Positions 2,451-22,015 of a DNA stretch of 27,196 nt are shown piece by piece (positions within the stretch are counted from its first letter, which is position 1; each line of letters starts with the position of its first letter). Position numbers and translations under genes: made by a program. The notes beneath the pieces are model-generated. The model saw nothing but the letters and a program-made list of their open reading frames with translations, ran no database searches and was not told the DNA's origin. The stretch comes from Nanobdellota archaeon (GTDB lineage: Archaea; Nanobdellota; Nanobdellia; Pacearchaeales; GW2011-AR1), in assembly GCA_018816625.1 (NCBI GenBank), contig JAHIVR010000108.1, positions 1 to 27,196 on the forward strand, read 5' to 3'.

Positions 2451-2478
2451 TTACTTTGGCCAAGCCTGGACGAAGTAA
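2451..2478. repeat. Palindromic mini-element copy A (TTACTTTGGCCAAGCCTGGACGAAGTAA)
   Basis: 27/28 identical to 11990-12017; imperfect hairpin; lies between the putative TATA box and the ATG of the protease. Confidence 0.85.
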
Positions 2479-2500
2479 TAAAACTGAGTAGGGTAACTAT

Positions 2501-2998
2501 TTAAATATTATTATTTGCCGAAGAGATCTTAGAAATATCTATCCTATTACTCTGATCCACCATCTTTGTATATTTTTGTAAAAGTAATGCAACACTCATT
2601 GTTCCAATATACATAGCTCTCTCTTCCAAAGTTCCGCAACTATCAAGAATTAAATGCCCAGCAACACCTGCACCTAACCAAGCAAAAGTCTTCATCTTGG
2701 CCTTTGCAAATAAAGCCCAAACAGCAGGTAGGACAACACCATACCTCAAAGAATGAGTAAAACTCCTGTGTTCTATTTGAGGAAGAACATCATTAGCCAG
2801 CAAAAAATCTCCAGCAAAATCAATATCTGGTAAAAATCCTCCAACAACACTCCTTACAGCAGTCTCAACCCTACCAGCACCAGGATAAAATTCTTTAGAT
2901 AAAAGATACCCTGTCATAACGTGCCCCATTAAATCAGCAGATGCTAAATAAGGATAATCCGCCATAGCCATTAAAGTTCCAGTAAGAGTAGCTACCAT
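2501..2998 (-). CDS. Metal-dependent membrane hydrolase (YdjM / LexA-binding inner-membrane hydrolase-like)
   Basis: Motifs GH..TG, GGFLPDID, HRSFTHSL and GHLILD with hydrophobic segments. The true start may be a downstream Met. Confidence 0.75.
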   Translation of the reverse strand: MVATLTGTLMAMADYPYLASADLMGHVMTGYLLSKEFYPGAGRVETAVRSVVGGFLPDIDFAGDFLLANDVLPQIEHRSFTHSLRYGVVLPAVWALFAKAKMKTFAWLGAGVAGHLILDSCGTLEERAMYIGTMSVALLLQKYTKMVDQSNRIDISKISSANNNI

Positions 2999-3042
2999 AG
3001 TTTCAAATCAAGAAGTAGCTTTTAAAACATTTCTATAAAAAC

Positions 3043-3109
3043 AAATGAGCCTACTCTAAACCGGCTACGCTTGGACGGAAATCGAATAGTTAGAAAAATG
3101 AGCCTACTC
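3043..3109. repeat. 14-bp duplication of the tRNA-Ile 3' end (AAATGAGCCTACTC at 3043-3056 and 3096-3109) enclosing mini-element copy B (3057-3095)
   Basis: Exact 14-bp direct repeat; the 39-bp insert contains GGCTACGCTTGGACG, 14/15 identical to the core at 9601-9615. Confidence 0.75.
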
Positions 3110-3219
3110 GGATTCGAACCGAGGACCCCTGCCTTTCTTAGAAAAACTAAGATACCTACAATCCTAACGGACCGCATTCATATAAGAGCAGTGCTCTGAC
3201 CAGGCTGAGCTATAGGCTC
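3099..3219 (-). tRNA. tRNA-Ile(UAU) with a 46-nt intron (3135-3180) at position 37/38
   Basis: Cloverleaf: acceptor GAGCCTA/TAGGCTC plus discriminator A, D stem GCTC/GAGC, anticodon stem CTGCT/GGCAG, loop CT-TAT-A|A, T arm CTCGG-TTCGAAT-CCGAG. Canonical BHB (CTTA:TAAG helix, bulges TA|T and AA|A). No encoded CCA. Confidence 0.93.
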
Positions 3220-3351
3220 CTGACTTATAAAACATAAATATCTTTCTATTTAAAGGTTTTTAGTTAGTTTTAAAAAGCATTTTTATCTCTAAGCAATATC
3301 AACTATATTAAAGGAAAGTTGAATGTCAAGAAAACCATAGGTTGTCTTACA

Positions 3352-3498
3352 GCCCCGTTAGTACAGAGGCCAAGTATGCTGCCCTTTCAAATGACGGCAC
3401 AAGTCGGCGTTTGTTGAGGAAACCTTGTGTTTCCGATTCAAATGGCACGACCATCATGAAGCACGGCAGTGACCCGGGTTCGAATCCCGGACGGGGCG
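3352..3498 (+). tRNA. tRNA-Glu(UUC) with a 74-nt intron (3390-3463) at position 37/38
   Basis: Acceptor GCCCCGT/ACGGGGC plus G, anticodon stem CTGCC/GGCAG, anticodon TTC at 3386-3388, T arm CCGGG-TTCGAAT-CCCGG. BHB: CTTT:GAAG helix with bulges CA|A and CA|C. Confidence 0.95.
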
Positions 3499-3532
3499 TA
3501 TAGCCTTTTTGGCACCCAAAGGAGATGAAGAA

Positions 3533-4483
3533 TTACTTATCTAGGTGACCACTTTTCTTTACTTTCTTCTTTTTTGTAGTCACCTCTTTTAAAGTTTTCT
3601 TATATTGTTTGATCAAGAATCTTAATGTAGTCTTAATATCATCTTGTTTGGAATACTTTTGAAGAGTTTGATAGTATTCCATTCTATCTTCAAGCATAAT
3701 GTTTATTGGAGGAGATTTATTTTTAAGAAGAATGAAATTAAGAAGCAATCTTCCAACTCTTCCATTCCCATCCTGAAAGGGGTGAATATGCTCAAACTGA
3801 TTATGCATTATTCCTGCAAGTGCTAAAGGTTTGAATTTATCTTTATTTTCTTTATACCACTCAATAAAATCCTCTAAATAATCTTTAAGTTCCTCCTTTG
3901 GAACTCCTGCATGAAGAATATGCCCTGCAGAATTTCTAACAACAACATTAACATTTCTGAATTTTCCTGCAAATGGCTTAGCCCCCTTGAAACATAACTC
4001 ATGTAATTTTAAAAGTAGTTTTATCGAGACATCTTCCTTAGTTTTTCTTATATAATTTACAGCTCCTGCAACACCCTTAGTTTCTACCTCTTCTTCATTT
4101 TCCGCTCGTATTTTTGAAAGAATCTCAGGAACTTCTTCTTCTGTAACAATTGATCCTTCAATTGCATTAGTATTATAAACAAAATCTTGTGTAAAAATCT
4201 CCCACTCTTTATCACTTAAATGGACAATGTCAATTTTATCACTATACTTGTTTAAAGTTTCAATCTGTTTTTTTGTCAAGGAAAATAAAAAAACATCCGT
4301 GTTAATTTTTTCCAGCAATTCCTTTATCTTTTTTTCGGCCTTTTTTCTGGCTTTTTCCAGTTCTTCCTTAGAAAGATTTGCTCCCAGATATTTTCTTATC
4401 TTTTCTACTCTTTCTTTATCTCTGTAAGAATGAACAAGATAATATTTTATTGATTTACCTGATTTTCTTTTTTCAATATACAT
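3533..4483 (-). CDS. Fic-domain protein (intramolecular-inhibition type) with N-terminal KYLG module
   Basis: Canonical HPFQDGNGRVGR motif (3749-3784); the N-terminal inhibitory motif TNAIEG matches (S/T)xxxE(G/N). Confidence 0.92.
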   Translation of the reverse strand: MYIEKRKSGKSIKYYLVHSYRDKERVEKIRKYLGANLSKEELEKARKKAEKKIKELLEKINTDVFLFSLTKKQIETLNKYSDKIDIVHLSDKEWEIFTQDFVYNTNAIEGSIVTEEEVPEILSKIRAENEEEVETKGVAGAVNYIRKTKEDVSIKLLLKLHELCFKGAKPFAGKFRNVNVVVRNSAGHILHAGVPKEELKDYLEDFIEWYKENKDKFKPLALAGIMHNQFEHIHPFQDGNGRVGRLLLNFILLKNKSPPINIMLEDRMEYYQTLQKYSKQDDIKTTLRFLIKQYKKTLKEVTTKKKKVKKSGHLDK

Positions 4484-4494
4484 AATATATCAAA

Positions 4495-4534
4495 GGTGCC
4501 CACGTTTATAAATATTTCTACTTTTGTGGTCACC
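4495..4534. promoter_or_regulatory. fic1 promoter: TATA box TTTATAAA (4505-4512) flanked by inverted repeat GGTGCCCAC / GTGGTCACC
   Basis: The TATA box lies 21 nt before the ATG at 4483; IR arms at 4495-4503 and 4526-4534 (8/9 match). Confidence 0.55.
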
Positions 4535-4548
4535 CCTACCCATACAAT

Positions 4549-4570
4549 CCATCTTGACAATCTTTATAAA
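4549..4570 (+). repeat. 22-bp repeat CCATCTTGACAATCTTTATAAA (second copy 6684-6705)
   Basis: 21/22 identity between the copies; ends in a TATA-like TTTATAAA. Confidence 0.75.
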
Positions 4571-4600
4571 ATTTAAAGATCACAACAAACTATAACCAAG

Positions 4601-4648
4601 TCGAGATAAAAAGAGTCCCATGGACTTGGTCTAGATCGTCTCGGATTC
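4601..4648 (+). repeat. 48-bp direct repeat, left copy, bounding the MNT-HEPN cassette
   Basis: 45/48 identical to 5484-5531. Confidence 0.9.
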
Positions 4649-4659
4649 TAAATATGTAC

Positions 4660-4691
4660 GTCTACACCACAAGATTTATATATTAGTAGAC
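4660..4691. promoter_or_regulatory. MNT-HEPN promoter: TATA box TTTATATA (4675-4682) inside inverted repeat GTCTAC-N20-GTAGAC
   Basis: The TATA box lies 21 nt before the ATG at 4704; perfect 6-bp IR at 4660-4665 and 4686-4691. Confidence 0.5.
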
Positions 4692-4703
4692 ACACAATAT
4701 TGT

Positions 4704-5168
4704 ATGGTATTTACAGAAATTAAAGAAAGAAACAAGAAAAAATATTATTACCGAGTTTTATCTGTAAGAAATAGTAGGAAAGTGGCAAAAAAACGAAAAT
4801 ACTTAGGTGTTGATTTATCAAAAAAAGACCTTCAGAAAAAAGAAGCGGAAGCTGATAAAATTTTAGGGATTGAAAATAAAAAAGAAACAGAAGCTCTAAA
4901 AAAAATAAAAACTCAAATTTTGAAAATTTTAAAGCAATACAAAATAAAAAAAGCAAGTATTTTTGGAAGTTATGCAAGAGGAGATTTTAAAAAAAAGAGT
5001 GATATCGATCTAATAATCCAACCAACTCCTGGAATGGGATTGGAATTTGTAGGCCTTGCATTAGAATTAGAAGATAAACTTGGAAAAAAGATCGATTTAC
5101 TTACATACAAAAGTATTCATCCTTTAATTAAAAAAAGTGTAATGGAAGATGAAATTAGAATAATATGA
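4704..5168 (+). CDS. mntA: Minimal nucleotidyltransferase (MntA-type antitoxin) with N-terminal KYLG module
   Basis: GSX10DXD motif: GS-YARGDFKKKS-DID; overlaps the HEPN gene by 4 bp. Confidence 0.9.
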   Translation: MVFTEIKERNKKKYYYRVLSVRNSRKVAKKRKYLGVDLSKKDLQKKEAEADKILGIENKKETEALKKIKTQILKILKQYKIKKASIFGSYARGDFKKKSDIDLIIQPTPGMGLEFVGLALELEDKLGKKIDLLTYKSIHPLIKKSVMEDEIRII

Positions 5169-5506
5169 TCAAAAATAATCCAAACACATATATTAAACAC
5201 ATTCTAGAAAATATAAAAGACATAGAAGAATTTTCTAAAGAATTAACTAAAAATAAAATATCTGAAGATAAACTAAGACAAAAAGCAATCATTAGATCAA
5301 TAGAAATTATTGGAGAAGCTGTTAAAAATCTTCCAGAATCATTTAGAAAAAACTACCCAAAAATCCCTTGGAAGAAAATTGCTGGAACAAGAGATAGAAT
5401 CATCCATCATTATTTTGGAATAGATTTGGACATTGTTTGGGAAATAATTAAAAAAGATCTTCCTGCATTAAAAAAGCAAATACTCGAGATAAAAAGAGTC
5501 CCATAG
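5165..5506 (+). CDS. hepT: HEPN / DUF86 RNase toxin (HepT-type)
   Basis: AIIRSIEIIGEA and PWKKIAGTRDRIIHHY (R-X4-H followed by Tyr); paired with the MNT gene. Confidence 0.9.
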   Translation: MIKNNPNTYIKHILENIKDIEEFSKELTKNKISEDKLRQKAIIRSIEIIGEAVKNLPESFRKNYPKIPWKKIAGTRDRIIHHYFGIDLDIVWEIIKKDLPALKKQILEIKRVP

Positions 5507-5531
5507 ACTTGGTCCAGATCGTCTCTGATTC
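5484..5531 (+). repeat. 48-bp direct repeat, right copy; supplies the last codons and stop of hepT
   Basis: 45/48 identical to 4601-4648; TAG here versus TGG in the left copy. Confidence 0.9.
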
Positions 5532-5557
5532 GGACGGGGCGTAATACCATTTTGGCA
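5531..5557 (+). repeat. Copy of the tRNA-Glu 3' end plus trailer (att-like)
   Basis: CGGACGGGGCGTA is identical to 3488-3500; 23/27 identity over 3488-3514. Confidence 0.8.
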
Positions 5558-5583
5558 TAATAGAGTGATGTATTTTTTCTAAT

Positions 5584-5624
5584 GTAGTACATAATAGAAA
5601 GATTTAAATAAGAGTAGTACATAA
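5584..5624 (+). promoter_or_regulatory. fic2 promoter: TATA box TTTAAATA (5603-5610) between direct repeats GTAGTACATAA
   Basis: Exact 11-bp direct repeats at 5584-5594 and 5614-5624; the TATA box lies 21 nt before the ATG at 5632. Confidence 0.6.
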
Positions 5625-5631
5625 CTAATCT

Positions 5632-6537
5632 ATGGTTACCGAAAAACAAATAGAAGTTAAAGGAAAAAAATACTGGATACTAATTCACTCAGTCAGAAAA
5701 GGGAATAAAGTTATTCAAAAGAAAAAGTATATTGGTAAATCCCTTCCTCCAAAAACTAGGTTGGAGCAGTTAAAAAAAGAATTCTTACAGGAACTTTCTG
5801 GAGACAAATATAAATATCTTTCTAAAGAAGATTTGGAAAAAATTGAGGAAAAGAAAAGAAAATATAAACAAGAATTAAAAAAACTAAGCAAAATAGAGAA
5901 AGAAAAAAAGCTAAATGAATTTGCGATTAGATATACTTATGACAGTAGTAAACTTTCGGGGATTAATGTTACATTAAGACAAACTTTTTTAATTCTAAAA
6001 GAAGGAATAATTCCAAAAGACTTTAAAAACTTAAGAATTGCCAAAGAAATCGAAAACCATGAAAAAGGATTTATTGCAATAACAAAATACAAAGGCAAAT
6101 TTGACATTAACTTTCTAAAAAAATTGCACAAGGTTCTTTTTTCTGGAATTGATGATACAATTACTGGCAAGCTAAGAAATGAACTAAAGAGAGATGTGAA
6201 AATAGCTGGAACCGCTTATGTGCCTCCTAAATGGACTGAAATAAAAAAAGAATTGGATGAATTTTTTAAATGGTATAAAGCAAGTAATAGAAAATTGCAT
6301 CCTTTAGAGCTAGCTTCATTAATACATTTAAAATTAATTTCAATACAACCTTTTGTTGATGGAAACAGCAGATTATCAAGATTGTTAATGAATTGGATTT
6401 TATGGAAAAAAAGTTATCCTTTAATAGATATTCCCATAGAAGACTTGGAAAATTATTATGATGCCCTTGATAAATACCAGATTGAAAAGGATGAAAGGCC
6501 TTTTGTAGATTATATTAAAAAGAAGTATTTATCTTAG
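5632..6537 (+). CDS. Fic-domain protein with substituted active site (His to Gln) and N-terminal KYIG module
   Basis: QPFVDGNSRLSR at 6346-6381 replaces HPFxDGNGRxxR; the inhibitory helix reads SSKLSG (no Glu). Confidence 0.88.
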   Translation: MVTEKQIEVKGKKYWILIHSVRKGNKVIQKKKYIGKSLPPKTRLEQLKKEFLQELSGDKYKYLSKEDLEKIEEKKRKYKQELKKLSKIEKEKKLNEFAIRYTYDSSKLSGINVTLRQTFLILKEGIIPKDFKNLRIAKEIENHEKGFIAITKYKGKFDINFLKKLHKVLFSGIDDTITGKLRNELKRDVKIAGTAYVPPKWTEIKKELDEFFKWYKASNRKLHPLELASLIHLKLISIQPFVDGNSRLSRLLMNWILWKKSYPLIDIPIEDLENYYDALDKYQIEKDERPFVDYIKKKYLS

Positions 6538-6782
6538 TTGGAATTTCCTCAGCTCTTTCTCATATGAAATTCTAATGTGCAAATCAAAAGAAGAAATCAA
6601 GAAACTCATAAAACAATCAGTAAAAAACAGAGAAGCCATGCCTTTATTGTTGTGGTTGTGTAAAGAATCTTGATCTATCACTCCCATCTCGACAATCTTT
6701 ATAAATAAAAGCAGTCACTTATAAAGTATCGGACTATTATCATCCGCTGTGAAAAAGTTGATCACACTAAAATCACAAGATA

Positions 6783-6804
6783 CTGCCCTTTACGGTCGGG
6801 GCGT
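6783..6804 (+). repeat. Degenerate tRNA-Glu remnant / distal att-like site
   Basis: CTGCCCTTT (6783-6791) equals tRNA-Glu 3379-3387; CGGTCGGGGCGT (6793-6804) matches the 3' end at 11/12. Confidence 0.5.
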
Positions 6805-7943
6805 TTATTCTCTTGATAAAAGACTTTCTAATCTAGAAATATAACTATCCCAGGTGTTCTCCCTTCTAACTTTCTCTCTAGCCCTATCAACCATCTCTCT
6901 TACAGAAGCAGGATTATCCTTAAAAAAGTTAAAAGCACTAACAATATCCTCAGATTTTTCCGAAGGACCAATAGTATAATCACTCCTACTAGTTATTGTG
7001 GGCAATCCAACATCCATTGCATCAATAACCGTCTTTGCAAAAAGGCCATCAGTAACCATTGGTTGAATCAAAACATCTGAAGCAAAATAATTCTTAAAGA
7101 AATCAATTCTCCCTTGAGGAGTTTTCTTATCAATCCAGGAAACCAAAACCACTCTTTCCAACAGACAGGATTCAACCCAGCACCAACAAGACTATCTTTT
7201 CCTTTTTCTCCAGATCCAAGAAGGATTAATTTAGTTGAGGGATGAGACTCCATAATATTACCAAAAGCATCAAAAAGCTCTCTTCCTCTTTTTCCAAGAC
7301 CTAATCTTCCATAATAAAGAAGGACATTTTCAGAGTCAAGCCCTGCTCTATACCTCTCCCCTTCAACCCTAGCACCATCTAAAATTTCTGAATCGAGCAC
7401 AGAAACATCCGAAACATTCTCAAAAACACCAACTCTTTTGTCAAACCCCAGTCTTTCTAAAGCAAGTTTATGTAATTCGCTTATTGCTAAAAGAACATTA
7501 GAACGCCCTATTGCTTTTAATTGAGACCTCTCCCTCTCGCTCATAACAAAATCAATAATCTGCCTCATCTCTCCTTCAGGCAGAGTCCCATCCAAGAAAG
7601 ATGGTTTAAGATGAGCTGACAAATAGAAATAAGGAATAACGGCATGAAGATTCATAACAATTTGCGATTCAGAATCAGCACTAATTCCTCCAAGAAGCCC
7701 ATCGTGTTCCCACGTGTGACTTTGCAAGTAATATGTTCCTTTTGTGCCTATAGCATCTGGAGAAACAATAGTTGGCTTTTCTGTATCAAGATCAAGCCTT
7801 TTTACCGGGCCTCCAAACCAATTAGCATAATACTCAATAGGATACCCCCTATCGGCCATTTGTCTAGCAAAAGCGAAAGCATGCTCAAAAGTACCACTAT
7901 TTTGTCTTTCAATTCCCAAAACAACGTGTCTTCCTTGTTTCAT
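6805..7943 (-). pseudogene. GT-B (GT4-like) glycosyltransferase split by an apparent 1-nt frameshift near 7165-7170 (or a sequencing error)
   Basis: Upstream frame: MKQGRHVVLG...LLYYGRLGLGKRG...LILLGSG. The downstream frame carries the C-terminal half (SDVLIQP..DGLFAKTVIDAMDVGLPTI...ENTWD). The frames join as GLNP-x-LLERV if one base is added. Confidence 0.75.
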
Positions 7944-8073
7944 CTTAACTTTCCTAATTATCACCAAAACATAATTTTCGGTTAAATTCAATCGAAAAAA
8001 TTTTTAACCGTTTATATATCTTTCCCAAGATTTTTCATAAAACCCTTATAAACCCCCACCACATTTATAAGAT

Positions 8074-8892
8074 ATGAGAAAAAGATACTCCTTTTCTTCA
8101 AGACACACAGGGCAGGCAAAAGATCCAAAAAACATTAGAAAGGAAAAGGCCAAATTTCCAGCAATACTACAAAAACTCCTTTACGAGGCAGACATAATAA
8201 TCCAGGTCTTGGATGCAAGATTTATTGAAGAAACAAGAAACAAAGATCTTGAAAAATACGTTGAAAAATCATCTAAAGGAATGATTTACGTAATAAACAA
8301 GTCCGATTTGGCAGAAAAAATAAAAGAAGTGCCAAAACCACACGCAATGGTCTCTTGTAAAAACAGGAAGGGTATACGAGTCTTAAGAGACAAAATAAAA
8401 ATACTCGCATCTAGAATTAAAAAAGACAAAATCACTGTGGGAATTGTTGGCTACCCCAATACCGGCAAATCCTCACTAATAAATCTCCTGATAGGAAAAA
8501 AATCAGCCCCCTCCGCTCCCCAACCAGGGTACACAAAAGGAGTACAGAAACTAAAGCTATCTGGAAACATCCTACTTATAGACAGCCCGGGAGTAATTCC
8601 AAAAGAAGAATACTCTTCAATTGAAGAGAACCTCATTACAAAACACACCAAGGTTGGATCACGTTCATATTCAAGCGTAAAAAATCCAGAGCAAATAATT
8701 GCTAGTTTAATGAGAGAATTTCCAAATCTGCTAGAAGAACACTATTCAATAGAAGCTCAAGGAAACTCAGAAATCCTTTTGGAAGAGCTGGGAAAAAGAA
8801 AAAATCTTCTCAAAAAAAGAGGGGAAGTAAACTTCGATAGTGCTTCAAGATTAATACTAAAAGACTGGCAGACCGGTAAAATCAAGGTTTAG
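8074..8892 (+). CDS. Circularly permuted ribosome-biogenesis GTPase (RbgA/YlqF family)
   Basis: Motif order G4 (NKSD), then G1 (GYPNTGKS), then G3 (DSPG); also QVLDAR. Confidence 0.9.
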   Translation: MRKRYSFSSRHTGQAKDPKNIRKEKAKFPAILQKLLYEADIIIQVLDARFIEETRNKDLEKYVEKSSKGMIYVINKSDLAEKIKEVPKPHAMVSCKNRKGIRVLRDKIKILASRIKKDKITVGIVGYPNTGKSSLINLLIGKKSAPSAPQPGYTKGVQKLKLSGNILLIDSPGVIPKEEYSSIEENLITKHTKVGSRSYSSVKNPEQIIASLMREFPNLLEEHYSIEAQGNSEILLEELGKRKNLLKKRGEVNFDSASRLILKDWQTGKIKV

Positions 8893-9082
8893 GATCAATC
8901 TCAAGATAAAATATTCTTACGGGAGAATACATCTTACACTTCCCATTGTTATTGGGGTCATGAGAACAAACAGAACAATCACCAACCCCCTCGCCTCTCA
9001 TAAAAGGAGGCATATAAACCTCCTCTTTTGGTCTAAAAACCTGATGAACGCATTTTACAGAACTCTCAAGTTCCATCCACAA
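8882..9082 (-). CDS. Small Cys-containing hypothetical protein
   Basis: Fills the gap downstream of elp3 on the same strand and has CSVC plus further Cys; no family recognised. Confidence 0.45.
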   Translation of the reverse strand: MWMELESSVKCVHQVFRPKEEVYMPPFMRGEGVGDCSVCSHDPNNNGKCKMYSPVRIFYLEIDPKP

Positions 9083-9100
9083 ACAAATAATCTTTATTAT

Positions 9101-10600
9101 TTAAAACTTCTTAACCATGTAAGAACCTTCTAATCTGTAACCCATCTTATGATAATACTCCCTAACTCCAACACCAGAAATAACCTTTAACTCTTCAATT
9201 TTATTCTTCAAAACAATCCTCTCAGCCTCTCCCATGAGCCACTTACCTAATCCGGTATGCTGTCCCAACTTCCCTTCTGCACCAAGGGCAAGAGCCTGTC
9301 CGTAAACATGAAGCTCCCTAACAATTGCATGTTTGACTCGCTTCGCTCGAGAATTTTTAGAAGCATTAACTGATAGTTCATTTTGAGTTTTACCATTAAC
9401 CTTGTAAGAGGCAGTGGTCGGAGATGTGGAGGATTTAGATAAATCTTCATCAAATATTCTCAGCCTAAGTAATCCAAAAAGGATATTATCTTTATTCACA
9501 ATCTCTAAAAAATACTCCTCTCCTCCGGAAGCCTTGTATCTAACAACCTTCAATTTAATATTTTTATCAACATCAATATTAAAACCTATTTCTCCACCTT
9601 GGCCACGCTTGGACGAGGTTCGCGACAAAGCAAACCCTATCTCTCTCATTCTTATCTCACTAATTTTTCTTCCAGAATCCCTTATTTTTTGTTCCACATC
9701 CTTTCTTAAATCAATTCTAACAGGATCAAACGCCATTTTTTCCTTAGGAATCTCTCTCATGACCCTCATTACCCTGCAATACTCTGGAATAATATCCATT
9801 ATTTTATTTATAATCTCTCTTGTCTGTGCTTCGTTATACGGCTCATAATTAATTTTCTTATACATACTAGCCAAAGGAGAATCATCCACTATCTGGCACG
9901 GGTAAATCTTTAATTGATCCGGTCTAAACCTATCATCAGAATATATCTTCTTAAACAACCTGATATCTTTCCCTGGATTACTATAAGGTAACCCGGGCAT
10001 AACATGATAACCCACCTTAAATCCAGCGTCCTTCAGCCTCTTAGTTGCATCAACAACATCTTTAACCGTGTGCCCGCGTTTTATCTTCTTATAAATTTCA
10101 TCGTCTAAAATCTGAATTCCAATTTCAACCCTTGTGCACCCAAATTCTAACATTCTCTTTACCTCTTCATCACTACAATTATCTGGTCGGTTCTCTATGC
10201 ACATAGCAACACACCTGTGTCTTGATTTTTCATTCAGTTTCTTAGCCTCTTCCAGATTCTTACTCTTTTTATCGTTAAGCGCATCAAAACAAGCCTTAAT
10301 GTACCCGTACTGATAATCTAAATCATATTGTAAAAAAGTTCCTCCAAGAATTATTAACTCGATCTTATCTGTTGGATGCCCCATCTTCTCAAGAGTATCT
10401 AATCTAGATTTAACTTGTTCAAACGGGTCGTATTTCAAAGCCATGGCCCTCATTATTGCCGGACTCTTATCGGTATAGCTCTGTGGAACAAACTCCCCCC
10501 CAGGACAGTATATGCAGGTACCGTGATTACACTTTCTGGGTTTTAACACAACAGTTAAAGGAGTAACTCCAGATATTGTTCTTACAGGTTTCTTTGCCAT
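9101..10600 (-). CDS. elp3: Elp3 tRNA wobble-uridine carboxymethylation enzyme (radical SAM + KAT), with two peptide insertions
   Basis: CNHGTCIYCPGG, GCTRVEIGIQ, PDQLKIYP, RELHVYG, QHTGLGKWLM, VISGVGVREYY. Confidence 0.95.
   Translation of the reverse strand: MAKKPVRTISGVTPLTVVLKPRKCNHGTCIYCPGGEFVPQSYTDKSPAIMRAMALKYDPFEQVKSRLDTLEKMGHPTDKIELIILGGTFLQYDLDYQYGYIKACFDALNDKKSKNLEEAKKLNEKSRHRCVAMCIENRPDNCSDEEVKRMLEFGCTRVEIGIQILDDEIYKKIKRGHTVKDVVDATKRLKDAGFKVGYHVMPGLPYSNPGKDIRLFKKIYSDDRFRPDQLKIYPCQIVDDSPLASMYKKINYEPYNEAQTREIINKIMDIIPEYCRVMRVMREIPKEKMAFDPVRIDLRKDVEQKIRDSGRKISEIRMREIGFALSRTSSKRGQGGEIGFNIDVDKNIKLKVVRYKASGGEEYFLEIVNKDNILFGLLRLRIFDEDLSKSSTSPTTASYKVNGKTQNELSVNASKNSRAKRVKHAIVRELHVYGQALALGAEGKLGQHTGLGKWLMGEAERIVLKNKIEELKVISGVGVREYYHKMGYRLEGSYMVKKF
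9581..9645. repeat. Mini-element copy C (9595-9631, 37 bp) inserted in frame in elp3 between 14-bp direct repeats
   Basis: AAAACCTATTTCTC (9581-9594) versus AAACCCTATCTCTC (9632-9645), 12/14; the protein shows EIGF-ALSRTSSKRGQGG-EIGF. Confidence 0.8.
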
Positions 10601-11601: not shown

Positions 11602-12147
11602 TCATTTTTTTTTAATTTTAACTATGTCGAAGAAACTTTTCTTCTCAAAATCCTCTATCTTCATATCTTCAACATCAACACTAACCTTTAACAACCCCAA
11701 AGAAGAAATGAAGATAGTCCCTATAAGATAATGCTTTCCATCCTTCTTTTGTAAGGAAAAAAGTAATTTTTGTATCTTATTCTTAACCCCTTCTTTCTCC
11801 ATTCTACTCAAAATAAGATCTTCAACCTCATTAAAATCAAAATCCATATCCAAATCTATTTCTTTTGGAGGACTCTCTCCAAAAATATCAATAGAAGAAA
11901 GCTCACATCCCTTCTCTAATTTTAAGGAAAACATTTTTTTCTCTTCTGGAACAAAAAAATCAAAATGCTGTTGATTATCTGATTTTTCTTTACTTTGGCC
12001 AAGCTTGGACGAAGTAACAAGGGGCTCTGCTCCTTGCTTATCCATAACCAAAAACCCAGAGACTGGAATAGCCCCTTTATTATTTTTCATAAACTCTTCA
12101 TACTCGCTAGATCCCTTCAACTTCTCAACATAAAACTGGAAATTCAT
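11602..12147 (-). CDS. Hypothetical protein carrying an in-frame mini-element
   Basis: 181-aa ORF with composition typical of this window; the segment AEPLVTSSKLGQSKEK overlaps the palindrome. Confidence 0.8.
   Translation of the reverse strand: MNFQFYVEKLKGSSEYEEFMKNNKGAIPVSGFLVMDKQGAEPLVTSSKLGQSKEKSDNQQHFDFFVPEEKKMFSLKLEKGCELSSIDIFGESPPKEIDLDMDFDFNEVEDLILSRMEKEGVKNKIQKLLFSLQKKDGKHYLIGTIFISSLGLLKVSVDVEDMKIEDFEKKSFFDIVKIKKK
11990..12017. repeat. Palindromic mini-element copy E (TTACTTTGGCCAAGCTTGGACGAAGTAA), intragenic
   Basis: 30/31 identity with 2448-2478 over 11987-12017. Confidence 0.85.
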
Positions 12148-12878: not shown

Positions 12879-12879
12879 T

Positions 12880-14580: not shown

Positions 14581-14673
14581 GGAATTTCTAAAGCTAACTT
14601 ACTTATAAAACTTTCTTACAATCTCGTTTGAAGTCATGAAAAGTTTTAAAAACACTCTAACAAATCCAATACA

Positions 14674-15393: not shown

Positions 15394-16451
15394 TTTTTAA
15401 GAATGCACCCATCCAAATCACCCTTCTTAACCTTATCTAATCTATTTTGAAAATCGCCTATTAATTTAATAAGTTCTTCAGAAAGCATTTTCTTCATCTC
15501 TCCGCTTAGAATCTTTCCTTTCCTGTAATCCTCGTAAACCTCTTTTGTTTTTTTATCATCAAAGAAAAAATCTTTAAGATAAAGATAAGAAACATCCTTC
15601 TCGGAATTTCCACCTTTTTCTCTATGTTCATCAATGGTCTTTTGTCCACCAGAAAAAGCACTATTGACCTTTTTTATTATGTCTTTCTTAGAATCGCTAA
15701 AAAATATAGCGTTACTCTTAGATTTTGACATTTTCTCTCCATCCAATCCAGGCAAAAAACCAGCATGAAGTATTGAAGGGGCCCTATATCCCAGTCTTCT
15801 CGCAATATCTCTTGAGATTCTTATGTGGGCATCTTCATCAGGGCCTATTGGTACCAAAACATTCTTTATTCCAAACTTTTCCTGAGGAAACAAGATATGC
15901 GCTGCCTGAATTGCTGGATAAAAATGCAACCCAATATTCTCCTCGTTTTTATATCCGTAAGTCGCCTTTATCTCAGAAAGATTAATTTTCCTAGATAGTT
16001 TTATTGCTAAATTGTATATGTTTGTATAAATCTGATCTATAATAAAATAGGTTTTCTTGGGATTAAATCCGTAAGCCAAAAGCTCTTTAGCCAGTTTCAA
16101 AGCATTTTGTAAAGCCTCGTCCTGATTTTCAACCTTCCCCGCAACATAAGATTCATCGTCAGATATAGGAATAAATACTTTAACACCATACTTTTTTTGA
16201 AAAAACAAATTAGTATCGAAAACAACCTTATGCCCTATGTGTATTGTGCCAGAAGCGTTAAATCCTGAAAGAATAGCACACTTCTCTCCCCTCTTCAAGG
16301 CCGCAAAAAACCTATCAAAATCCCTATGGGAATATATCAGCCCCTTCTTAAAAGTGTAAAAATCTGGCAAATCCTTTAACTTCGATAAAGGCTCCGCTCC
16401 AAATCTCTTAACGAGCTTCTCATTATCTTCTTGAAGTTTCTTTAAATCCAT
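15390..16451 (-). CDS. trpS: Tryptophanyl-tRNA synthetase (archaeal/eukaryal type)
   Basis: HIGH (GTIHIGH), KMSKS, YPAIQAA, SGGQKTIDEHREKGGN. Confidence 0.93.
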   Translation of the reverse strand: MDLKKLQEDNEKLVKRFGAEPLSKLKDLPDFYTFKKGLIYSHRDFDRFFAALKRGEKCAILSGFNASGTIHIGHKVVFDTNLFFQKKYGVKVFIPISDDESYVAGKVENQDEALQNALKLAKELLAYGFNPKKTYFIIDQIYTNIYNLAIKLSRKINLSEIKATYGYKNEENIGLHFYPAIQAAHILFPQEKFGIKNVLVPIGPDEDAHIRISRDIARRLGYRAPSILHAGFLPGLDGEKMSKSKSNAIFFSDSKKDIIKKVNSAFSGGQKTIDEHREKGGNSEKDVSYLYLKDFFFDDKKTKEVYEDYRKGKILSGEMKKMLSEELIKLIGDFQNRLDKVKKGDLDGCILKN

Positions 16452-16563
16452 AACAAAAAGAAGCCCCCAACTCTTTTAAATTTATCCAAAATCCATCAAA
16501 AACATCAAAACATCCACATAATATTTATAAAGAATCGTTTGTTCAAGAAAACATAAAAAGAAA

Positions 16564-18594
16564 ATGAAAAAAGTCTTATTGCTTTTGGTAGGAATTCTCC
16601 TCATTTATTCTGTATCGGCAGAAATAATTATAACAAAACAACCAGTAGGAACCTATAATCTTGGGGAGATGGTGACAATACCCGTTACAATAAAAACACT
16701 AACAGATGTTTCAAATAGTTTAGAGATGACATTATTGTGTAACGGACACGAGATAAACTTCTACAAAAACGGGGTCTTCCTCTCTTCTGGAGAAGAAAAA
16801 AAATTCGAGGCCTCTCTTATTTTAACCGAATCCATGATAGGGAAGACGCTAGGAGCCTGTAAAATAAAAATAATGCTTGGAGATGAATACATCTTAACCG
16901 ATGATTTTTCAATATCTAGTCAGATAAGCCTCCACAATACCATTCAACAAACAGAAATATTTCCTGGAAAAGAGATAATTATTGATGGTGGTGCAACAAA
17001 AGAAAGCGGAAAAGATGTTAATGGTTTCCTAGAAATAGAAATATCCAAAGCAGATACCGCAAACGCAACAACCTATTTGAAAAAATTAGATACCATAAAC
17101 AATGGATTTTTCTCAGTAAATATAACTGCTCCAGAGGACATGCCAGCAGGAGAGTACCTTATAAAACTAATCGCTTATGAAAAAAGCGGACTAGGAGAAA
17201 TAACTAATCTTGGATACGGAAATAATAAGTTCTTAGTACTTCAAATAGCAAACAATATAGAGATAATAATTGAAAACCCAATAGTTGAACCAGGAACTTC
17301 CGCAAGAATAAAGGCAATACTCCACGATCAAACAGGAGAGAACATAGATTCGCTAACAACCCTTACAATAACTGATTCAAAAAATCAAATAAGGGAGAAA
17401 ATAGAAGTTGCAACAAACGAATTTTTTGATTTTCCTATATTAAGTAATGAACCTCCAGAAGAATTTAAAATAGTGGCGAACACCGGAGAACTCTCAAGTG
17501 AGATGACCTTTCAAATAATAGAAAAACCAAAAATTGATGTATTTGTTTTAAATAGAACTCTTTCAATAATAAACACCGGAAATGTTCCATACTGCAACAA
17601 ATCAGTATTAGTTAAAATAGGGGAAGAAACTCTAAATCTGGATGTCTGTCTAAACCTTGGTGAAGAACAAAAATACTCTCTAAGCGCCCCTGATGGAGAG
17701 TACTTAGTAGAAATAATAACCGAAGAAGAAACAAAAACTGCCGAAAATATTGTGCTTACTGGTAACGCAATAAGCATAAAAGAAGCATCCAGCAGCATAG
17801 GAACACTAACAAGACATCCCTTCATATGGCTTTTCGTTATGGGAATCTTGGGATTTATTGCAATGACTATCTATAAAAAAGGATATCAAAGAAGTTTTAT
17901 TGGAAGAATCGGCATAGGAAGAAAAAAAGAAACATATAAGACAACAGAAAACACTCCAAACCACACAGTACCAATGAGAAAAAAATCACTAATCAATACA
18001 AAAAATAAAGCAGAACTCTCACTGTCAATAAAAGGTGACAAACAAAACGTTTCAATTGTTGCACTAAAAATAAAAAACCTAAGAGAGCTTGAATCAGAAA
18101 AGGGAAATTCAGAGGAAACTCTCCAAAAGATAGTAAATCTAGCCGAAGAAAATAAAGCACTAAGTTATGAAAACCAGGACAATATCTTTTTTATATTCTC
18201 TCCTACAAAAACTAAGACATTTAAAAACGAAAAGATAGCAATTGAGCTTGCAAACAAAATACAACCAATACTAATACACCACAACAAAATGTTCAAACAG
18301 AAAATAGATTATGGAATAGCATTAAACTACGGAACAATTGTTGGTAAACAAGAACTCCAATCATTTAACTTCATGAGCATGGGAACCCTTATAACCACTG
18401 CTAAAAAACTATCTACAATATCTAAAGGAGAAATCCTTCTAGCAGAAAAAATAAAGGAAAGAGTAGATACAAGCGTAAAAACAGAAAGAAAAATTAGTGG
18501 AACCACAAAATACTTCACCATAAAATCTATACAAGACACAGACCAACACAAACAATTCATTAAAAGTTTTCTAGAAAGAATTGAAAAGAAATAA
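16564..18594 (+). CDS. Single-pass membrane protein: large exported beta-rich region + TM + degenerate class III nucleotidyl-cyclase-like domain
   Basis: Signal peptide; TM HPFIWLFVMGILGFIAMTIY (about 17815-17874); C-terminal pattern VSIVALKIKN...QDNIFFIF...YGIALNYG...MGTLITTAKKL...GEILL. The ORF is certain; the domain call is tentative. Confidence 0.6.
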   Translation: MKKVLLLLVGILLIYSVSAEIIITKQPVGTYNLGEMVTIPVTIKTLTDVSNSLEMTLLCNGHEINFYKNGVFLSSGEEKKFEASLILTESMIGKTLGACKIKIMLGDEYILTDDFSISSQISLHNTIQQTEIFPGKEIIIDGGATKESGKDVNGFLEIEISKADTANATTYLKKLDTINNGFFSVNITAPEDMPAGEYLIKLIAYEKSGLGEITNLGYGNNKFLVLQIANNIEIIIENPIVEPGTSARIKAILHDQTGENIDSLTTLTITDSKNQIREKIEVATNEFFDFPILSNEPPEEFKIVANTGELSSEMTFQIIEKPKIDVFVLNRTLSIINTGNVPYCNKSVLVKIGEETLNLDVCLNLGEEQKYSLSAPDGEYLVEIITEEETKTAENIVLTGNAISIKEASSSIGTLTRHPFIWLFVMGILGFIAMTIYKKGYQRSFIGRIGIGRKKETYKTTENTPNHTVPMRKKSLINTKNKAELSLSIKGDKQNVSIVALKIKNLRELESEKGNSEETLQKIVNLAEENKALSYENQDNIFFIFSPTKTKTFKNEKIAIELANKIQPILIHHNKMFKQKIDYGIALNYGTIVGKQELQSFNFMSMGTLITTAKKLSTISKGEILLAEKIKERVDTSVKTERKISGTTKYFTIKSIQDTDQHKQFIKSFLERIEKK

Positions 18595-18639
18595 ATACCT
18601 AAAAAAATTTATCTATTGCTGAAATTAATGTGCAAGAAA

Positions 18640-18775
18640 TTAAATTTAACTCACTAAAGCTCGGAATTTCCCAAAATATACTAATAAGGTATAGATTTTG
18701 CCCCCAGAACGTTGTATTAACAGCTAACATCAATATCAAATGAATTGGGTGAAAGAACCAATTTCTTCTTAGTTA
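18640..18775 (-). mobile_element. Possible degenerate non-autonomous IS200/IS605 derivative (end remnants)
   Basis: 18761-18775 is identical to 20947-20961 (15 bp, IS left end). 18652-18671 (CACTAAAG...GGAATTTCC) resembles the IS right end at 20360-20379. Confidence 0.35.
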
Positions 18776-18830
18776 TGTAGACACTAATCTAAAAAATAAT
18801 TTTATAAATACCCCTTACTTTAGATTACCT

Positions 18831-19907
18831 ATGAAAAGAGGGGATAAAAAAGGCTTATCCACCGTTATTGTAACTCTCATATTAATAGGACTAGGAATAG
18901 TTGCGGTGGTGCTTGTGTGGGCGGTAATAGGAAAAACTATTTCTGAAGGAAGCAATGAAGTAGAATTGGGAAAATTCACTATTAACCTAAAGATAGAAAA
19001 AGTTATTATAAATGACGGTTCTGTGGAAATTACCGTAAAAAGAGATGTTGGAAGGGGGGAAATCTCTGGATTGAATATAGTTTTCTTTGACGGAGCCCAA
19101 CAAAAAATAGTGAAGGTTAATTCCCTTGATTTAGGAGAGCTAACAACAAAAAAATTCACAGTCGATTATCCTGGCATTATTAAAAGCGTTGGAGTCGCTC
19201 CTCTTTTAAAGTCAGACTCGGACTCTGTTGTTGCTGGAAAAATACAAGGAACAATAGAATATTCTGGTAGAGAGGCAATAGAAAACATACCTGGACTAGT
19301 ATCGTGGTGGAGATTTGAAGGTAATGCCCAGGATGAAGTAGGAGATAACAATGGTGTAGCTAATGGAGCAACACAAACAGATGGAAAATTTGGAAAAGCC
19401 TATGCATTTGACGGAGCTGATGATTATATCAATATTACAAATGATGTTTCACTTCAATTAGAAAACTCAAACTTCACAATAGCAACATGGGTTTATTTAA
19501 ATGATTATACGGCAGTTTGGAAATCTTTTGTAACTAAAGGGAATATATTTAATTTTGTGGATGGTTATGGTTTAGCAACTTTAAATGATGCTCCTTTTTT
19601 TGGAACCAGATACTCAAGTGCTGCCAGCACTAATACTCTCTCCTCAGATAATTGGTACCATATAACAGGAACACATGATTTTAATAATGCTGGCAATACT
19701 ATAATAAAAATTTATATAAATGGTGATCTAGATAGAGAAGAGGTTTTAGCTTCAACATCATCAACACTAACTAATGATCATTTATTAATTGGAACAGATG
19801 AGAACATTGTCTGGGACTTCAACGGAAAAATAGATGAATTCATGATTTTTAATACAACACTATCAGAAGATGATATTCTAGCACTATATAATTTAGATTT
19901 AAGTTAG
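18831..19907 (+). CDS. Archaeal type IV pilin-like protein with C-terminal LamG / ConA-like domain
   Basis: Class III signal peptide MKRGDKKG|LSTVIVTLILI; LamG hallmarks LVSWWRFEG, GKFGKAYAFDG, WYHITGT, KIYING, FNGKIDEFMIFN. Confidence 0.85.
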   Translation: MKRGDKKGLSTVIVTLILIGLGIVAVVLVWAVIGKTISEGSNEVELGKFTINLKIEKVIINDGSVEITVKRDVGRGEISGLNIVFFDGAQQKIVKVNSLDLGELTTKKFTVDYPGIIKSVGVAPLLKSDSDSVVAGKIQGTIEYSGREAIENIPGLVSWWRFEGNAQDEVGDNNGVANGATQTDGKFGKAYAFDGADDYINITNDVSLQLENSNFTIATWVYLNDYTAVWKSFVTKGNIFNFVDGYGLATLNDAPFFGTRYSSAASTNTLSSDNWYHITGTHDFNNAGNTIIKIYINGDLDREEVLASTSSTLTNDHLLIGTDENIVWDFNGKIDEFMIFNTTLSEDDILALYNLDLS

Positions 19908-19949
19908 ATTTCAAAAATATAAAGAGGAGAGGTTGTACTATTCCATTTT

Positions 19950-20330
19950 CTATCTTCTGCTCTTAGTTGTAAGGAGTATTGTCCTTTTTTTAGCTCTCCA
20001 AAAAGTCCCTTTCCTTGAGCGCCAATAACCGCTCCCACCTGCTTCAAAAGAGAAAGCCTCTCCCCTAAGGGCCCTAGCCATATCTCCATCGTATTTGAAG
20101 GTTATTACATTGCTAATTCTTTTTGTATCGCCTCTACCATAAACAAAAATAGTAAGTGATCTTAAATCTCCATCAACATCTCTTGCAGAAAACCTGGCAC
20201 TATAGGTGTGTGCTCCATCAACAAAAACAGGAGTTATCTCATAATCTAAAACTGGAACATTGGATTCACCGCCACATCCCAAGGCAATAACTGCCAATCC
20301 CCCAATAACAGTTTTCCTTATTGCTCCCAT
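19950..20330 (-). CDS. Hypothetical lipoprotein-like protein
   Basis: Signal peptide ending in a lipobox-like IALG|C; the C-terminus looks atypical and may be degraded. Confidence 0.5.
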   Translation of the reverse strand: MGAIRKTVIGGLAVIALGCGGESNVPVLDYEITPVFVDGAHTYSARFSARDVDGDLRSLTIFVYGRGDTKRISNVITFKYDGDMARALRGEAFSFEAGGSGYWRSRKGTFWRAKKRTILLTTKSRR

Positions 20331-20346
20331 TTTATTTTACACTATA

Positions 20347-20957
20347 TGACATCCTCCCACACTAAAGTGTGGAGTTTCCATGATGCTCTGACTGATTTCT
20401 TACATAATTCCTGACTACATCAAGTTGAACAAATCCAACACTAGAAGCAAATTTTCCTCTACTCCACAAATGTCCTTTTGAATAACGAAGCCTTGCTTTT
20501 TTATGAAACTCAAAAAATAATTTTGAAGAACCTCCTTTCAATAATTGCAATGTCTTTGAAACAAACATCGTAAAACTTACTCCCACAACACAATGAACGT
20601 GTTCTGGTTGAACATCAAGTTCAATTATTTTTATGTTGTGTCTCGACGCTGATCTCCTAACGCAAGCAGTTAGAAGATTTTTATATTTTAGTTTTCTAAA
20701 CATCTTATATCAATATTTAATACACCATTCTAAATGTAACATCATAACTCCAACGCTATGATCTGTTCTTTCATACTGGTTAATTTGTAATTGTTCATCC
20801 ATTTTATTCTCCGAAAGGTTTATTTAGAAAGAAAGCTACTGCTAATTGTAACATTCAGGAGGTTAGTATCTAACCTTCTTTTATAATCAATTCTTAGAAT
20901 AAATAATCAGCGGGGAGAAACTTCACTCCATCTTAAAAAAATGGAGATTTCTTCTTA
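20347..20957 (-). mobile_element. IS200-family element (tnpA only)
   Basis: Subterminal hairpins CTCCAT-N9-ATGGAG (20926-20946) and CCACAC-TAAA-GTGTGG (20357-20372). On the minus strand the element follows TTAAC and ends ...GGAGGATGTCA. Boundaries are approximate. Confidence 0.8.
20362..20802 (-). pseudogene. tnpA: IS200 Y1 HUH transposase with an in-frame TGA at codon 31 (20710-20712)
   Basis: MDEQ...HSVG..LHLEWCIKY*YKMF, where TGA replaces the Arg of KYRY; HUH motif EHVH, LKGGSS, LWSRGKF, NYVRNQ. Confidence 0.9.
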
Positions 20958-20987
20958 GTTAAGAAAAGCCCATATATTTATATTTAA

Positions 20988-21947
20988 CTATTTCTTTTTT
21001 ATTTTAACTAATTTACTCTCTTTTGGAACTTCCTTAAACTCTGGCTTATGGTCCTTATCTTTTTTAGAGTCCTTATCTTGAATTTTTTTCTTAAACATAA
21101 AAAACCGTGTAAACTTTCCAGATTCTCCTGATTTTTTTGGAAAAGATTTTTTTTGTGTTTCTTCTTTTGAAACATTTTTTGAAGAAGTCTTTTTAGCCAC
21201 TTCCTTCCTCACAATATCTTTTACCTCGCTCTTAGAAAATTTTTTCTTAACATAATCCGATAAGAATAGTCTTAATAAGACTCCAAAAATAAGAAGAACA
21301 GCCCCAATAAGCATCATCAAACCAGAAACAGAACCTGCTTTAGAAATAAATATATCCAAGAAAGCTTTATAAGAATCTCCTAAAAGTGAAAGGACTAAAC
21401 TTATTTTTGACACAATAAATCCTGAAAAAAGTATAAACGATCCCAAAAGGATTGGATAATTCATTTTATTCTCAATCAAGAAAAAGATCAAAACCGAGAG
21501 TATAATAAAAGCTATTAAAGAATAATAAAATTTATCCATCCAGTATGTTTTAGCCTTTTCGGATATTAAAACAAAAATACCTTTTCCATCATTAAGGCAC
21601 TCCCAAAATCCACAAGAGTATCCCTCATAATAAACATCGGCAACAAGTTGTTCAATTGCATAATTTATAACTGCTCCCTCTCCTTTTTCTACCTCAGAAC
21701 AAGGAATCGTAAGACTAAACCCTTCGGCATTAATAACAAACTCGGACCTATCCAAACAGTTTTGCTGTGACAAAGAAAATTCAAACCCGCCCTTTCCTAC
21801 CTCATGCCTAATGAAAGAACCCAAACCATTCTGAACACCTTCATAATTTAAAGAAGTTGATAGAACTAAGAATAATCCTCCAGCCAAAAGACTAAGAAAT
21901 AACAAACTACTCACTATAACTAAAAGCCCACCCCTTATCACTCCCAT
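20988..21947 (-). CDS. Hypothetical multi-pass membrane protein with Lys-rich tail
   Basis: About four hydrophobic segments; CxGFWEC; basic C-terminus. Confidence 0.8.
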   Translation of the reverse strand: MGVIRGGLLVIVSSLLFLSLLAGGLFLVLSTSLNYEGVQNGLGSFIRHEVGKGGFEFSLSQQNCLDRSEFVINAEGFSLTIPCSEVEKGEGAVINYAIEQLVADVYYEGYSCGFWECLNDGKGIFVLISEKAKTYWMDKFYYSLIAFIILSVLIFFLIENKMNYPILLGSFILFSGFIVSKISLVLSLLGDSYKAFLDIFISKAGSVSGLMMLIGAVLLIFGVLLRLFLSDYVKKKFSKSEVKDIVRKEVAKKTSSKNVSKEETQKKSFPKKSGESGKFTRFFMFKKKIQDKDSKKDKDHKPEFKEVPKESKLVKIKKK

Positions 21948-21991
21948 AAATTAAATAAGAAAGAGCAGTTTAAAAAGTTTCTACATCCTTT

Positions 21992-22015
21992 AATTTGACC
22001 AAGCCTGAACAAATT
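21992..22015. repeat. Diverged mini-element copy F, intergenic downstream of htpX
   Basis: TTGACCAAGCCTGAACAAA is 16/19 identical to copy A; outer arms AATTTG/CAAATT. Confidence 0.55.

Follow-up and report, generated by a model that had tools for sequence, protein, structure and literature searches.

Hairpin mini-elements with variable target duplications between genes, behind tRNAs and within reading frames of Nanoarchaeota

What are the short and nearly identical hairpins that recur between genes, behind a tRNA gene and in frame inside proteins on a 27,196-nt archaeal contig (JAHIVR010000108.1 of assembly GCA_018816625.1; the whole stretch is called the window here), and by what route did they get there? 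The window is contig C15 of a metagenome-assembled genome (MAG; here G000) of 1.13 Mb and 35% GC that is rated 78% complete; related records are labelled Candidatus Woesearchaeota, Pacearchaeota or Nanoarchaeota, and the four public runs in which this locus was seen are groundwater metagenomes. A preliminary description had listed five copies (A, B, C, E and F) and read them as a selfish element similar to the repetitive extragenic palindromes (REPs) of bacteria. Our comparison of sequences makes it likely that they belong to a family of Nanoarchaeota insertion elements (in MAGs labelled Woese- or Pacearchaeota), tiny, non-autonomous and restricted in lineage, for which synthesis-dependent insertion is the best fit. 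The hairpins are mobile DNA of a sort so far undescribed in these archaea: the full-text literature searched contains no such element for DPANN, Nanoarchaeota or Woesearchaeota, in line with the novelty first claimed for it.

Copy number and hairpin anatomy

On the gene (sense) strand, on which it is written below, the core is CGTCCA-AGCG-TGGCC; all five window copies have their host genes on the minus strand. Copies A, B, C and E match it strictly at the positions first given for them on the plus strand, and F is diverged. Chance is excluded as the source of these matches: shuffles of the window lead us to expect 0.06 core matches where 4 are observed and, genome-wide, GGCYAMGCYTGGACG is found 17 times exactly and 4 times with one mismatch (21 matches as opposed to 0 for the reversed control), while a relaxed core gives 35 matches as opposed to 0. 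The covariance model proposed earlier as a check on dispersal (R1, trained on 76 copies from many genomes and used at a cut-off of E<=0.01) recovers 43 copies in the 1.13 Mb, all five window copies among them, with F and B scoring lowest. Copy A (2451-2478, minus strand; R1 E=1.3e-9) is an intergenic hairpin between a YdjM-like gene (2501-2998) and a subtilase gene (start 2439), reads TTACTT-CGTCCAGGCTTGGCC-AAAGTAA on the gene strand, followed by AAAGAGG and the ATG, and is thus placed directly upstream of a ribosome-binding site. Copy F (21992-22015, minus strand; R1 E=1.6e-4) is likewise intergenic; its core on the gene strand (TGTTCAGGCTTGGTC) carries 3 mismatches, its arms are AATT/AATT and AAAGGA comes next.

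The constant part is a 15-16-nt imperfect hairpin (CGYCCA-RGCK-TGGYC-A on the gene strand) held between 4-5-bp arms that vary by copy. Its fold is the one drawn before, with a 3-bp inner stem, a 4-nt loop, a purine-purine mismatch as seen on the plus strand, a G.T wobble and variable arms; no variation is seen in the CCA/TGG of the inner stem or in the G-C pair that lies outside the mismatch. On the plus strand the majority of copies have G.A as the mismatch, a large sub-family has A.G and a few have A.A; it is never a Watson-Crick pair among the listed copies and always pyrimidine-pyrimidine on the sense strand, and the pair next to it is C.A in 57 of 72 distinct copies (G.T on the opposite strand). 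Because G.T and G.A there replace C.A and Y.Y, the hairpin pairs better on the strand opposite the genes. A fixed size of 37-39 bp, as originally assigned to the element, is not what we see: its constant part covers ~20-25 nt and the DNA added, duplicated target included, mostly amounts to 40-54 bp.

Covariation of the arms, also noted before, has statistical support in the 76 copies from many genomes. Each of the 4 arm pairs occurs with four Watson-Crick pair types, 96 cells are changed on both sides, and the covariation score of 0.358 compares with 0.104 in shuffles (0 of 500 reach 0.358) and at most 0.13 in slid controls. It need not mean selection on the fold, however, since the target itself supplies the 5' arm (gene strand) of a clean insertion and the 3' arm alone is new. 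An element whose arms covary could for that reason pass for a structured RNA; in Rfam 15 only two tRNAs of the window reach gathering score, and a lenient scan around copy E gave matches at chance level. The flanks follow the consensus ANNTT, core, AANNT-AAAG, with G at the last position in 89% of cases and purines next. In 24.7% of 93 copies (from G000 and other genomes, the sample also used for the duplications below), as compared with 5.2% of controls, the core has a second hairpin (H1) with a perfect stem of at least 6 bp on its 5' side; the 3' side of the same copies shows no excess over controls. H1 sits 6-9 nt from the core and usually has an AGA or AAA loop. Where empty sites are known (copies C and E, see below), its 5' arm overlaps native codons (K-Q-G in E, G-F in C) and its 3' arm is an imperfect inverted copy of the 5' arm.

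Target duplications, empty sites and landing places

That the hairpins are real mobile DNA follows from the duplication of target that goes with each insertion. A direct repeat of at least 12 nt (with at most 1 mismatch) spans the core in 47% of the 93 copies and at 4.8% of random sites, one of at least 14 nt in 32% and at 0.75%, respectively, and in gapped local alignments of the flanks 35 of the 93 copies lie above the 99th percentile of mismatched-pair controls. The length of the duplication is variable (~13-29 nt, with 14 nt at several tRNA sites, namely B, C150, L081 and L061, and 17-29 nt elsewhere); periods run from 40 to 102 and the total length added is mostly 40-54 nt. To our knowledge, long and variable duplications are otherwise known only from IS1634-type elements.

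The two junctions are not alike. The right-hand target copy mostly starts 5-6 nt past the core, right behind the 3' arm, and starts with AAAG; the left-hand copy abuts the core (gap of at most 3 nt) in 9 of the 35 cases, and the foreign DNA there is the core plus ~5 nt. In such clean insertions (C22, L069, L086, L076 and L058 are examples) the closing bases of the other target copy are those of the 5' arm, which marks this arm as target DNA. We infer that such insertions bring in no foreign DNA but the core and a 4-nt 3' arm, complementary to the bases with which the left target copy ends. Other cases have 5-37 extra nt between left target copy and core, some of which form H1, so the right junction is tight and the left one ragged, often with an extra hairpin. 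In five places [core + target] units stand in tandem, at periods of 42, 42, 44, 45 and 54.

Three window copies illustrate this geometry. Copy B, together with its target duplication, occupies 3043-3109 (minus strand) and lies 3' of an intron-containing tRNA gene (3099-3219, minus strand; Rfam RF00005, 55 bits) whose 3' end is its target, so that insertion behind a tRNA, as first described, stands. The 39-nt insert (3057-3095, core 3063-3077) is flanked by a 14-nt repeat, that is 3096-3109 (the last 11 nt of the tRNA plus TTT) and its duplicate at 3043-3056, with a period of 53 nt, and the same repeat length and period recur at the orthologous tRNA of genome G338 (L041/L081). At window position 3066 the MAG has a T that breaks a pair of copy B; contigs that cover the site in 4 of 4 groundwater runs have a C. 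Copy C (9581-9643, minus strand) is a 39-nt insert in elp3 (9593-9631, hairpin 9596-9619) between diverged 12-nt target copies (9632-9643 and 9581-9592), which encode EIGF twice; the gene's net gain is 51 nt, or 17 codons (ALSRTSSKRGQGGEIGF). Copy E (11986-12033, minus strand) is a 48-nt insertion of 16 codons (GAEPLVTSSKLGQSKE) in the gene for a 181-aa protein, with the core hairpin at 11990-12017 and H1 at ~12018-12036, the 5' arm of which overlaps native codons. Public assembler contigs end at copy E, so short-read assemblies are broken by the element.

Alignment of orthologues, which had been called for, does turn up empty sites. The 17-aa block is missing from all 19 Elp3 orthologues of related genera, among which the site of copy C is a segment of variable length, and the 16-aa block from 12 of 13 orthologues of the 181-aa protein; L098 is filled at the same site. 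Among 27 full-length orthologues of the copy B tRNA in other genera of the family, none has the core downstream, and 5 of these 27 genomes with an empty site carry the element family elsewhere. One comparison is ambiguous in this respect: the first copy in gyrase A differs from G146 by 4 residues only.

Copies C and E are translated in frame, as proposed before (TSSKRGQ in Elp3, TSSKLGQ in the 181-aa protein), and the same holds for copies in gyrase A, uL15, uS2 (three tandem units), TFE-alpha (three units) and TYW3, where 14-17 residues are added, mostly reading ..SSKRGQ... Short archaeal repeats inside reading frames are possible, as the coding palindromes of Methanocaldococcus jannaschii indicate, which differ from our hairpin element in sequence and lineage. 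Every coding insert measured is a multiple of 3, a check suggested from the outset (additions or periods of 51, 48, 42, 42 and 45 nt), while intergenic periods (40, 44, 49, 53, 59, 61, 62 and 65 nt) mostly are not. Copies are tolerated in genes only if the added DNA is a multiple of 3, and the lengths argue for translation and against removal from the RNA. An archaeal bulge-helix-bulge mini-intron was rejected on the same count, and the 3-nt bulges around a 4-bp helix are missing.

Is it then the peptide, rather than the DNA, that is selected? All 19 bona fide intragenic copies are co-oriented with their gene. That 14 of them use the SSKRGQ frame, and that the added peptide is hydrophilic and falls within stretches that differ in length, would suit a motif kept in proteins with no DNA element behind it. 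Such a view is effectively refuted by the intergenic copies, about half of the total; moreover, nucleotides are conserved at third codon positions too, 5 intragenic copies are read in another frame and orthologues do without the peptide, so we attach practically no credence to it.

Two loci with intragenic copies deserve separate mention. The gyrase A gene on contig C187 of G000 (L104) has two copies of the element and a weak match to an intein splicing domain at residues 163-267. On contig C186 of the same genome (579-1257, L103), two adjacent small open reading frames (ORFs) hold four copies within 360 bp; one of them encodes a zinc-ribbon protein with a weak DUF5795 match, and its orthologue in G146 has one copy near the same place.

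Outside genes, 14 copies are co-oriented with both neighbours and many lie 15-25 nt ahead of a start codon, with the ribosome-binding site inside the duplicated target. The target starts at a purine run (consensus T|AAAG), which accounts for landings in Shine-Dalgarno regions, at the ends of tRNAs and in coding DNA that is rich in Lys/Glu. Across genomes, at least 12 copies directly adjoin a tRNA gene, of whose end they duplicate 13-22 nt; one of them is beside a cluster of 5S rRNA and tRNA genes. These tRNA sites are what speaks for integration of short DNA by a staggered-cut integrase (a Cas1- or casposase-like enzyme, or a tRNA-targeting recombinase) that a plasmid or virus would supply in trans, in which case the duplications would be products of gap repair or att repeats. 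The 14-nt repeat and 53-nt period that are alike at the same tRNA in two genera point the same way, as do other hairpin modules and 1-kb cassettes of the group that also come with tRNA-end repeats. Casposons leave duplications of 14-15 bp, and Cas1-family enzymes are the only integrases we know of that insert DNA this short. Cas1 (PF01867), however, was not found in four carriers of the element (G000 and the 91-98% complete genomes G012, G338 and G146), though it was in 7 control genomes, and in this the family is unlike a casposon. Nor does the duplication appear to keep to one length (14 nt at several tRNA sites, ~13-29 nt over all copies), most targets are not tRNAs and share nothing but the purine run, and an exact 18-mer (TCGTCCAAGCGTGGCCAA) had no match in the viral collection (one variant was tried), for which reason a viral origin was discarded as well. 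An integrase of this sort is, to our minds, distinctly unlikely.

Several other modules occupy tRNA ends in the group. A long form of the element (~75-80 nt, with a 16-17-nt flanking repeat) lies beside a 5S rRNA gene and three tRNAs in CAZRAT01 (L097) and, on the opposite strand, at the tRNA ends of L066 and L085. At four orthologous tRNA loci (L141, L143, L145 and L149 in G006, G453, G024 and G455), different hairpin modules of 40-90 nt directly follow the tRNA, whose last 11-13 nt are repeated after the module in L141, L145 and L149; in L143 no repeat was detected. Modules at orthologous tRNAs of other genera suggest a shared insertion route, and in this archaeal family the 3' ends of tRNAs apparently serve several unrelated mini-elements as a common landing pad.

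How far does the family of hairpins reach? Among 400 genomes across the phylum, several matches per genome occur only within the window's own family, with the rest at the control rate, and a model search of 120 other genera of that family found 6 with at least 10 copies, 13 with 1-4 and ~100 with none. The exact 18-mer occurs in 46 stretches of a species-representative collection, 40 of which come from 31 Woese-, Pace- or Nanoarchaeota assemblies (one a single-cell genome) and 6 from outside the group (5 bacteria and 1 unlabelled metagenome chromosome), or about chance level. Two sites are filled in two distant genera each (E and L098; B and L081), and at eight loci common to genera, identity is 88% over arms plus core and 42-65% over the flanks, in a sample that was found through the core and is biased accordingly. 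We have not taken the latter figures as a sign of old conserved copies, given that the unbiased test at the tRNA gave empty sites in 27 genomes, carriers included. Because that test shows mostly empty sites, we favour reinsertion at hot spots, with the core constrained by whatever copies the family.

The same comparisons bear on whether the hairpin is a host cis-element under selection, perhaps bound by protein or RNA and acting on mRNAs (on their processing, stability or translation, upstream of ribosome-binding sites and behind tRNAs) or on DNA, with insertion as no more than its origin. A 15-nt core that stays identical in dozens of copies and in 31 assemblies of different genera while arms and flanks vary would fit this, and so would GC-rich codons kept at synonymous sites in an AT-rich genome, the constant position 15-25 nt ahead of start codons or directly behind tRNAs, co-orientation with transcription and the eight shared loci, with their ascertainment bias. 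Yet no copy is present in ~100 of the 120 sister genera sampled, in relatives the same genes and tRNAs function without the element, the stem of the sense RNA carries C.A and Y.Y mismatches, some copies have decayed (F, C42 and C200) and others are translated as part of essential proteins, in which it is not evident what an RNA signal would do. We consider a cis-element of this kind unlikely.

Mode of spread

Which enzyme, if any, moves the hairpins? A co-occurring HUH/Y1, Cas1 or other integrase gene, the search for which had been recommended, did not emerge: beyond the lack of Cas1 in the four carriers, Y1_Tnp genes are present in G000 only and unlinked to the element, with none over threshold in G012, G338 and G146, and a reverse transcriptase occurs in 1 of the 4 carriers. 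G000 has three Y1_Tnp genes, two in intact TnpA-TnpB units on contigs C63 and C77 and one in the window (20362-20748, minus strand). The window gene, sole HUH candidate there, is a degraded IS200-like transposase with an in-frame TGA; its Pfam match begins at profile position 25 with the TGA upstream, and it has no adjacent TnpB. A link between these IS200/IS605 genes and the hairpins was rejected, as no DNA similarity connects the three loci and the sole clear end hairpin, that of C63, bears no relation to the core. No hairpin copy lies beside any of the three, no protein family recurs near copies among 458 ORFs from ~40 loci of other MAGs and no insertion sequence (IS) carrying this core was found in the genome.

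A Y1 HUH transposase (of the REP-associated, RAYT, or IS200 type) that recognises the imperfect hairpin on one strand and moves a REP- or REPIN-like element as single-stranded DNA after cutting beside a short conserved flank would nonetheless agree with some of our observations. These are the better pairing on the strand opposite the genes, where a conserved CTTT(A) stands ahead of the palindrome and resembles a tag, the strict strand polarity of the copies and the very presence of three Y1_Tnp genes in G000. IS608 pairs a guide with its target in a manner that resembles the complementarity between the 4-nt segment of the element and the 4 nt of flanking target. Long variable target duplications, though, are not a product of HUH/IS200-type chemistry, three carriers have no Y1_Tnp over threshold, the genes in G000 are ordinary IS200/IS605 units or a remnant with unrelated end hairpins and no copies next to them, and no neighbour gene recurs in 40 loci. 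Movement by such an enzyme therefore strikes us as rather improbable.

Instead, we think that a mini insertion element without a transposase of its own is probably spread by template switching or by an enzyme acting in trans. Insertion that depends on DNA synthesis is favoured because the foreign DNA is the core plus a target-complementary arm and the duplication is variable in length. In a possible sequence of events, a nascent or broken 3' end would switch template to another copy and copy its core; the copied end would then fold back onto itself, or rely on microhomology, and anneal once more to its own template at an upstream position. Tandem arrays such as those observed, or else precise loss, would subsequently come from recombination of one target copy with the other. 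Neither a HUH nor a fixed-stagger transposase goes well with long variable duplications, a right junction that is tight, a left one that is ragged and an arm derived from the target, so a synthesis-dependent template switch appears to us a better fit than cut-and-paste or HUH transposition. In a stricter version, which we put forward tentatively and hold to be doubtful, the family would be mobile DNA free of any transposase: a 16-nt hairpin spread by host replication and repair, its arm templated by the target in the manner of P-nucleotides and its re-priming upstream duplicating 13-29 nt. If this were true, the same process may lie behind the other modules at tRNA ends that combine a hairpin with a duplication, and ultra-small genomes would be supplied continually with new in-frame loops for their essential proteins.

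Several observations weigh against synthesis-dependent insertion of a mobile hairpin. ACTT/AAGT is the commonest arm type (14 copies in many genomes); it and a sub-family whose imperfect arms are all alike give the impression of descent from master copies, not of arms made afresh whenever an insertion occurs. Across the 93 copies, inverted matches outside the arms are no more frequent than in controls; outer stems made from inverted target, striking in A, C24, B and C150, were accordingly dropped as a general feature. A core identical across genera whose proteins share only 50-70% identity would also fit selection for a host function, and the copies at the same sites (E/L098 and B/L081) could be old and conserved instead of products of hot-spot reinsertion. 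Nor is it obvious how template switching would account for the AAAG boundary or for an orientation as strict as this. Finally, neither a polymorphism between filled and empty alleles nor a clean joint was seen at any copy in the four runs, whose assembler contigs are uninformative in this respect.

Relation to known systems and neighbouring features

Our data leave the REP-like reading of the preliminary description only partly right. A dispersed and selfish-looking element that lies between genes, behind a tRNA and in frame, with empty sites in relatives, is what we find; the analogy with REPs moved by RAYT enzymes, however, is not supported in the light of variable target duplications, of copies half of which are intragenic and of the lack of any linked Y1 gene. 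The hairpins are a small non-autonomous insertion element with a possibly unusual mechanism. They do share with REPs and REPINs an imperfect palindrome of 20-40 nt, tens of copies, strand polarity, a division into sub-families that differ in their stems and the presence of some units within genes, but there is no linked RAYT, 19 copies are intragenic and duplications are strongly enriched. GTAG- and CGTC-tagged REPs (Di Nocera et al. 2013) are reported from 8 bacterial phyla only, mostly extragenic and as head-to-head dimers (PMC3733652). Their tag tetranucleotide is unpaired at one end, CGTC REPs come without a dedicated transposase and target duplication is nowhere mentioned for tagged REPs (PMC3733652). 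In the archaeal hairpin, by contrast, CGTC is base-paired in the stem, and of the flanks only AAAG (CTTT as read on the opposite strand), part of the duplicated target, is both conserved and unpaired. Identity with CGTC-tagged REPs was rejected on these grounds, the tag of the latter being unpaired and their hosts bacterial.

Among the nearest analogues, for their in-frame insertion, are the Rickettsia palindromic elements (RPEs), dispersed palindromic repeats of a reduced genome that insert in frame in housekeeping genes and add a peptide segment (PMC10969869); two RPE families belong to the CGTC-tagged REPs (PMC3733652). Like RPEs, the hairpin element lies in frame in conserved genes whose orthologues have empty sites (Elp3 and the 181-aa protein), whereas RPEs are bacterial and ~100-150 bp long and the hairpin element is archaeal, with a constant part of ~20-25 nt and long variable duplications. 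MITEs (miniature inverted-repeat transposable elements) are also among the nearest analogues (PMC10969869), being non-autonomous and multi-copy, with target duplications and no internal transposase. MITEs, though, have the fixed terminal inverted repeats of a parent IS and a fixed short duplication, while the arms of our element vary, its duplication is long and variable, its size is far smaller and no parent IS was found.

Very small though DPANN genomes are, this one tolerates ~40 copies of such an element, even inside gyrase, ribosomal proteins, TFE and Elp3. Should our reading be true, it would provide a natural example of selfish DNA that makes protein loops in essential archaeal genes, by an insertion process with long variable duplications and target-derived arms that fits no standard transposase chemistry. 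tRNA 3' ends and ribosome-binding sites would then be landing pads shared by several unrelated mini-elements.

The window holds further repeats near its tRNA genes. Within 3352-6804 it has a stack of ~1-kb cassettes (Fic, MNT/HEPN-like), with no integrase and no hairpin core in any of them. The stack lies behind a second tRNA gene with a long intron (3352-3498, plus strand), the last 11-13 nt of which (GGACGGGGCGT) recur at ~5531-5543 and ~6793-6804, and a ~46-bp repeat follows behind it at 4603-4650 and 5488-5531. The two intron-bearing tRNA genes (3099-3219 and 3352-3498) measure 121 and 147 nt as compared with the 71 positions of the model; ARAGORN overlooks both and Rfam detects both.

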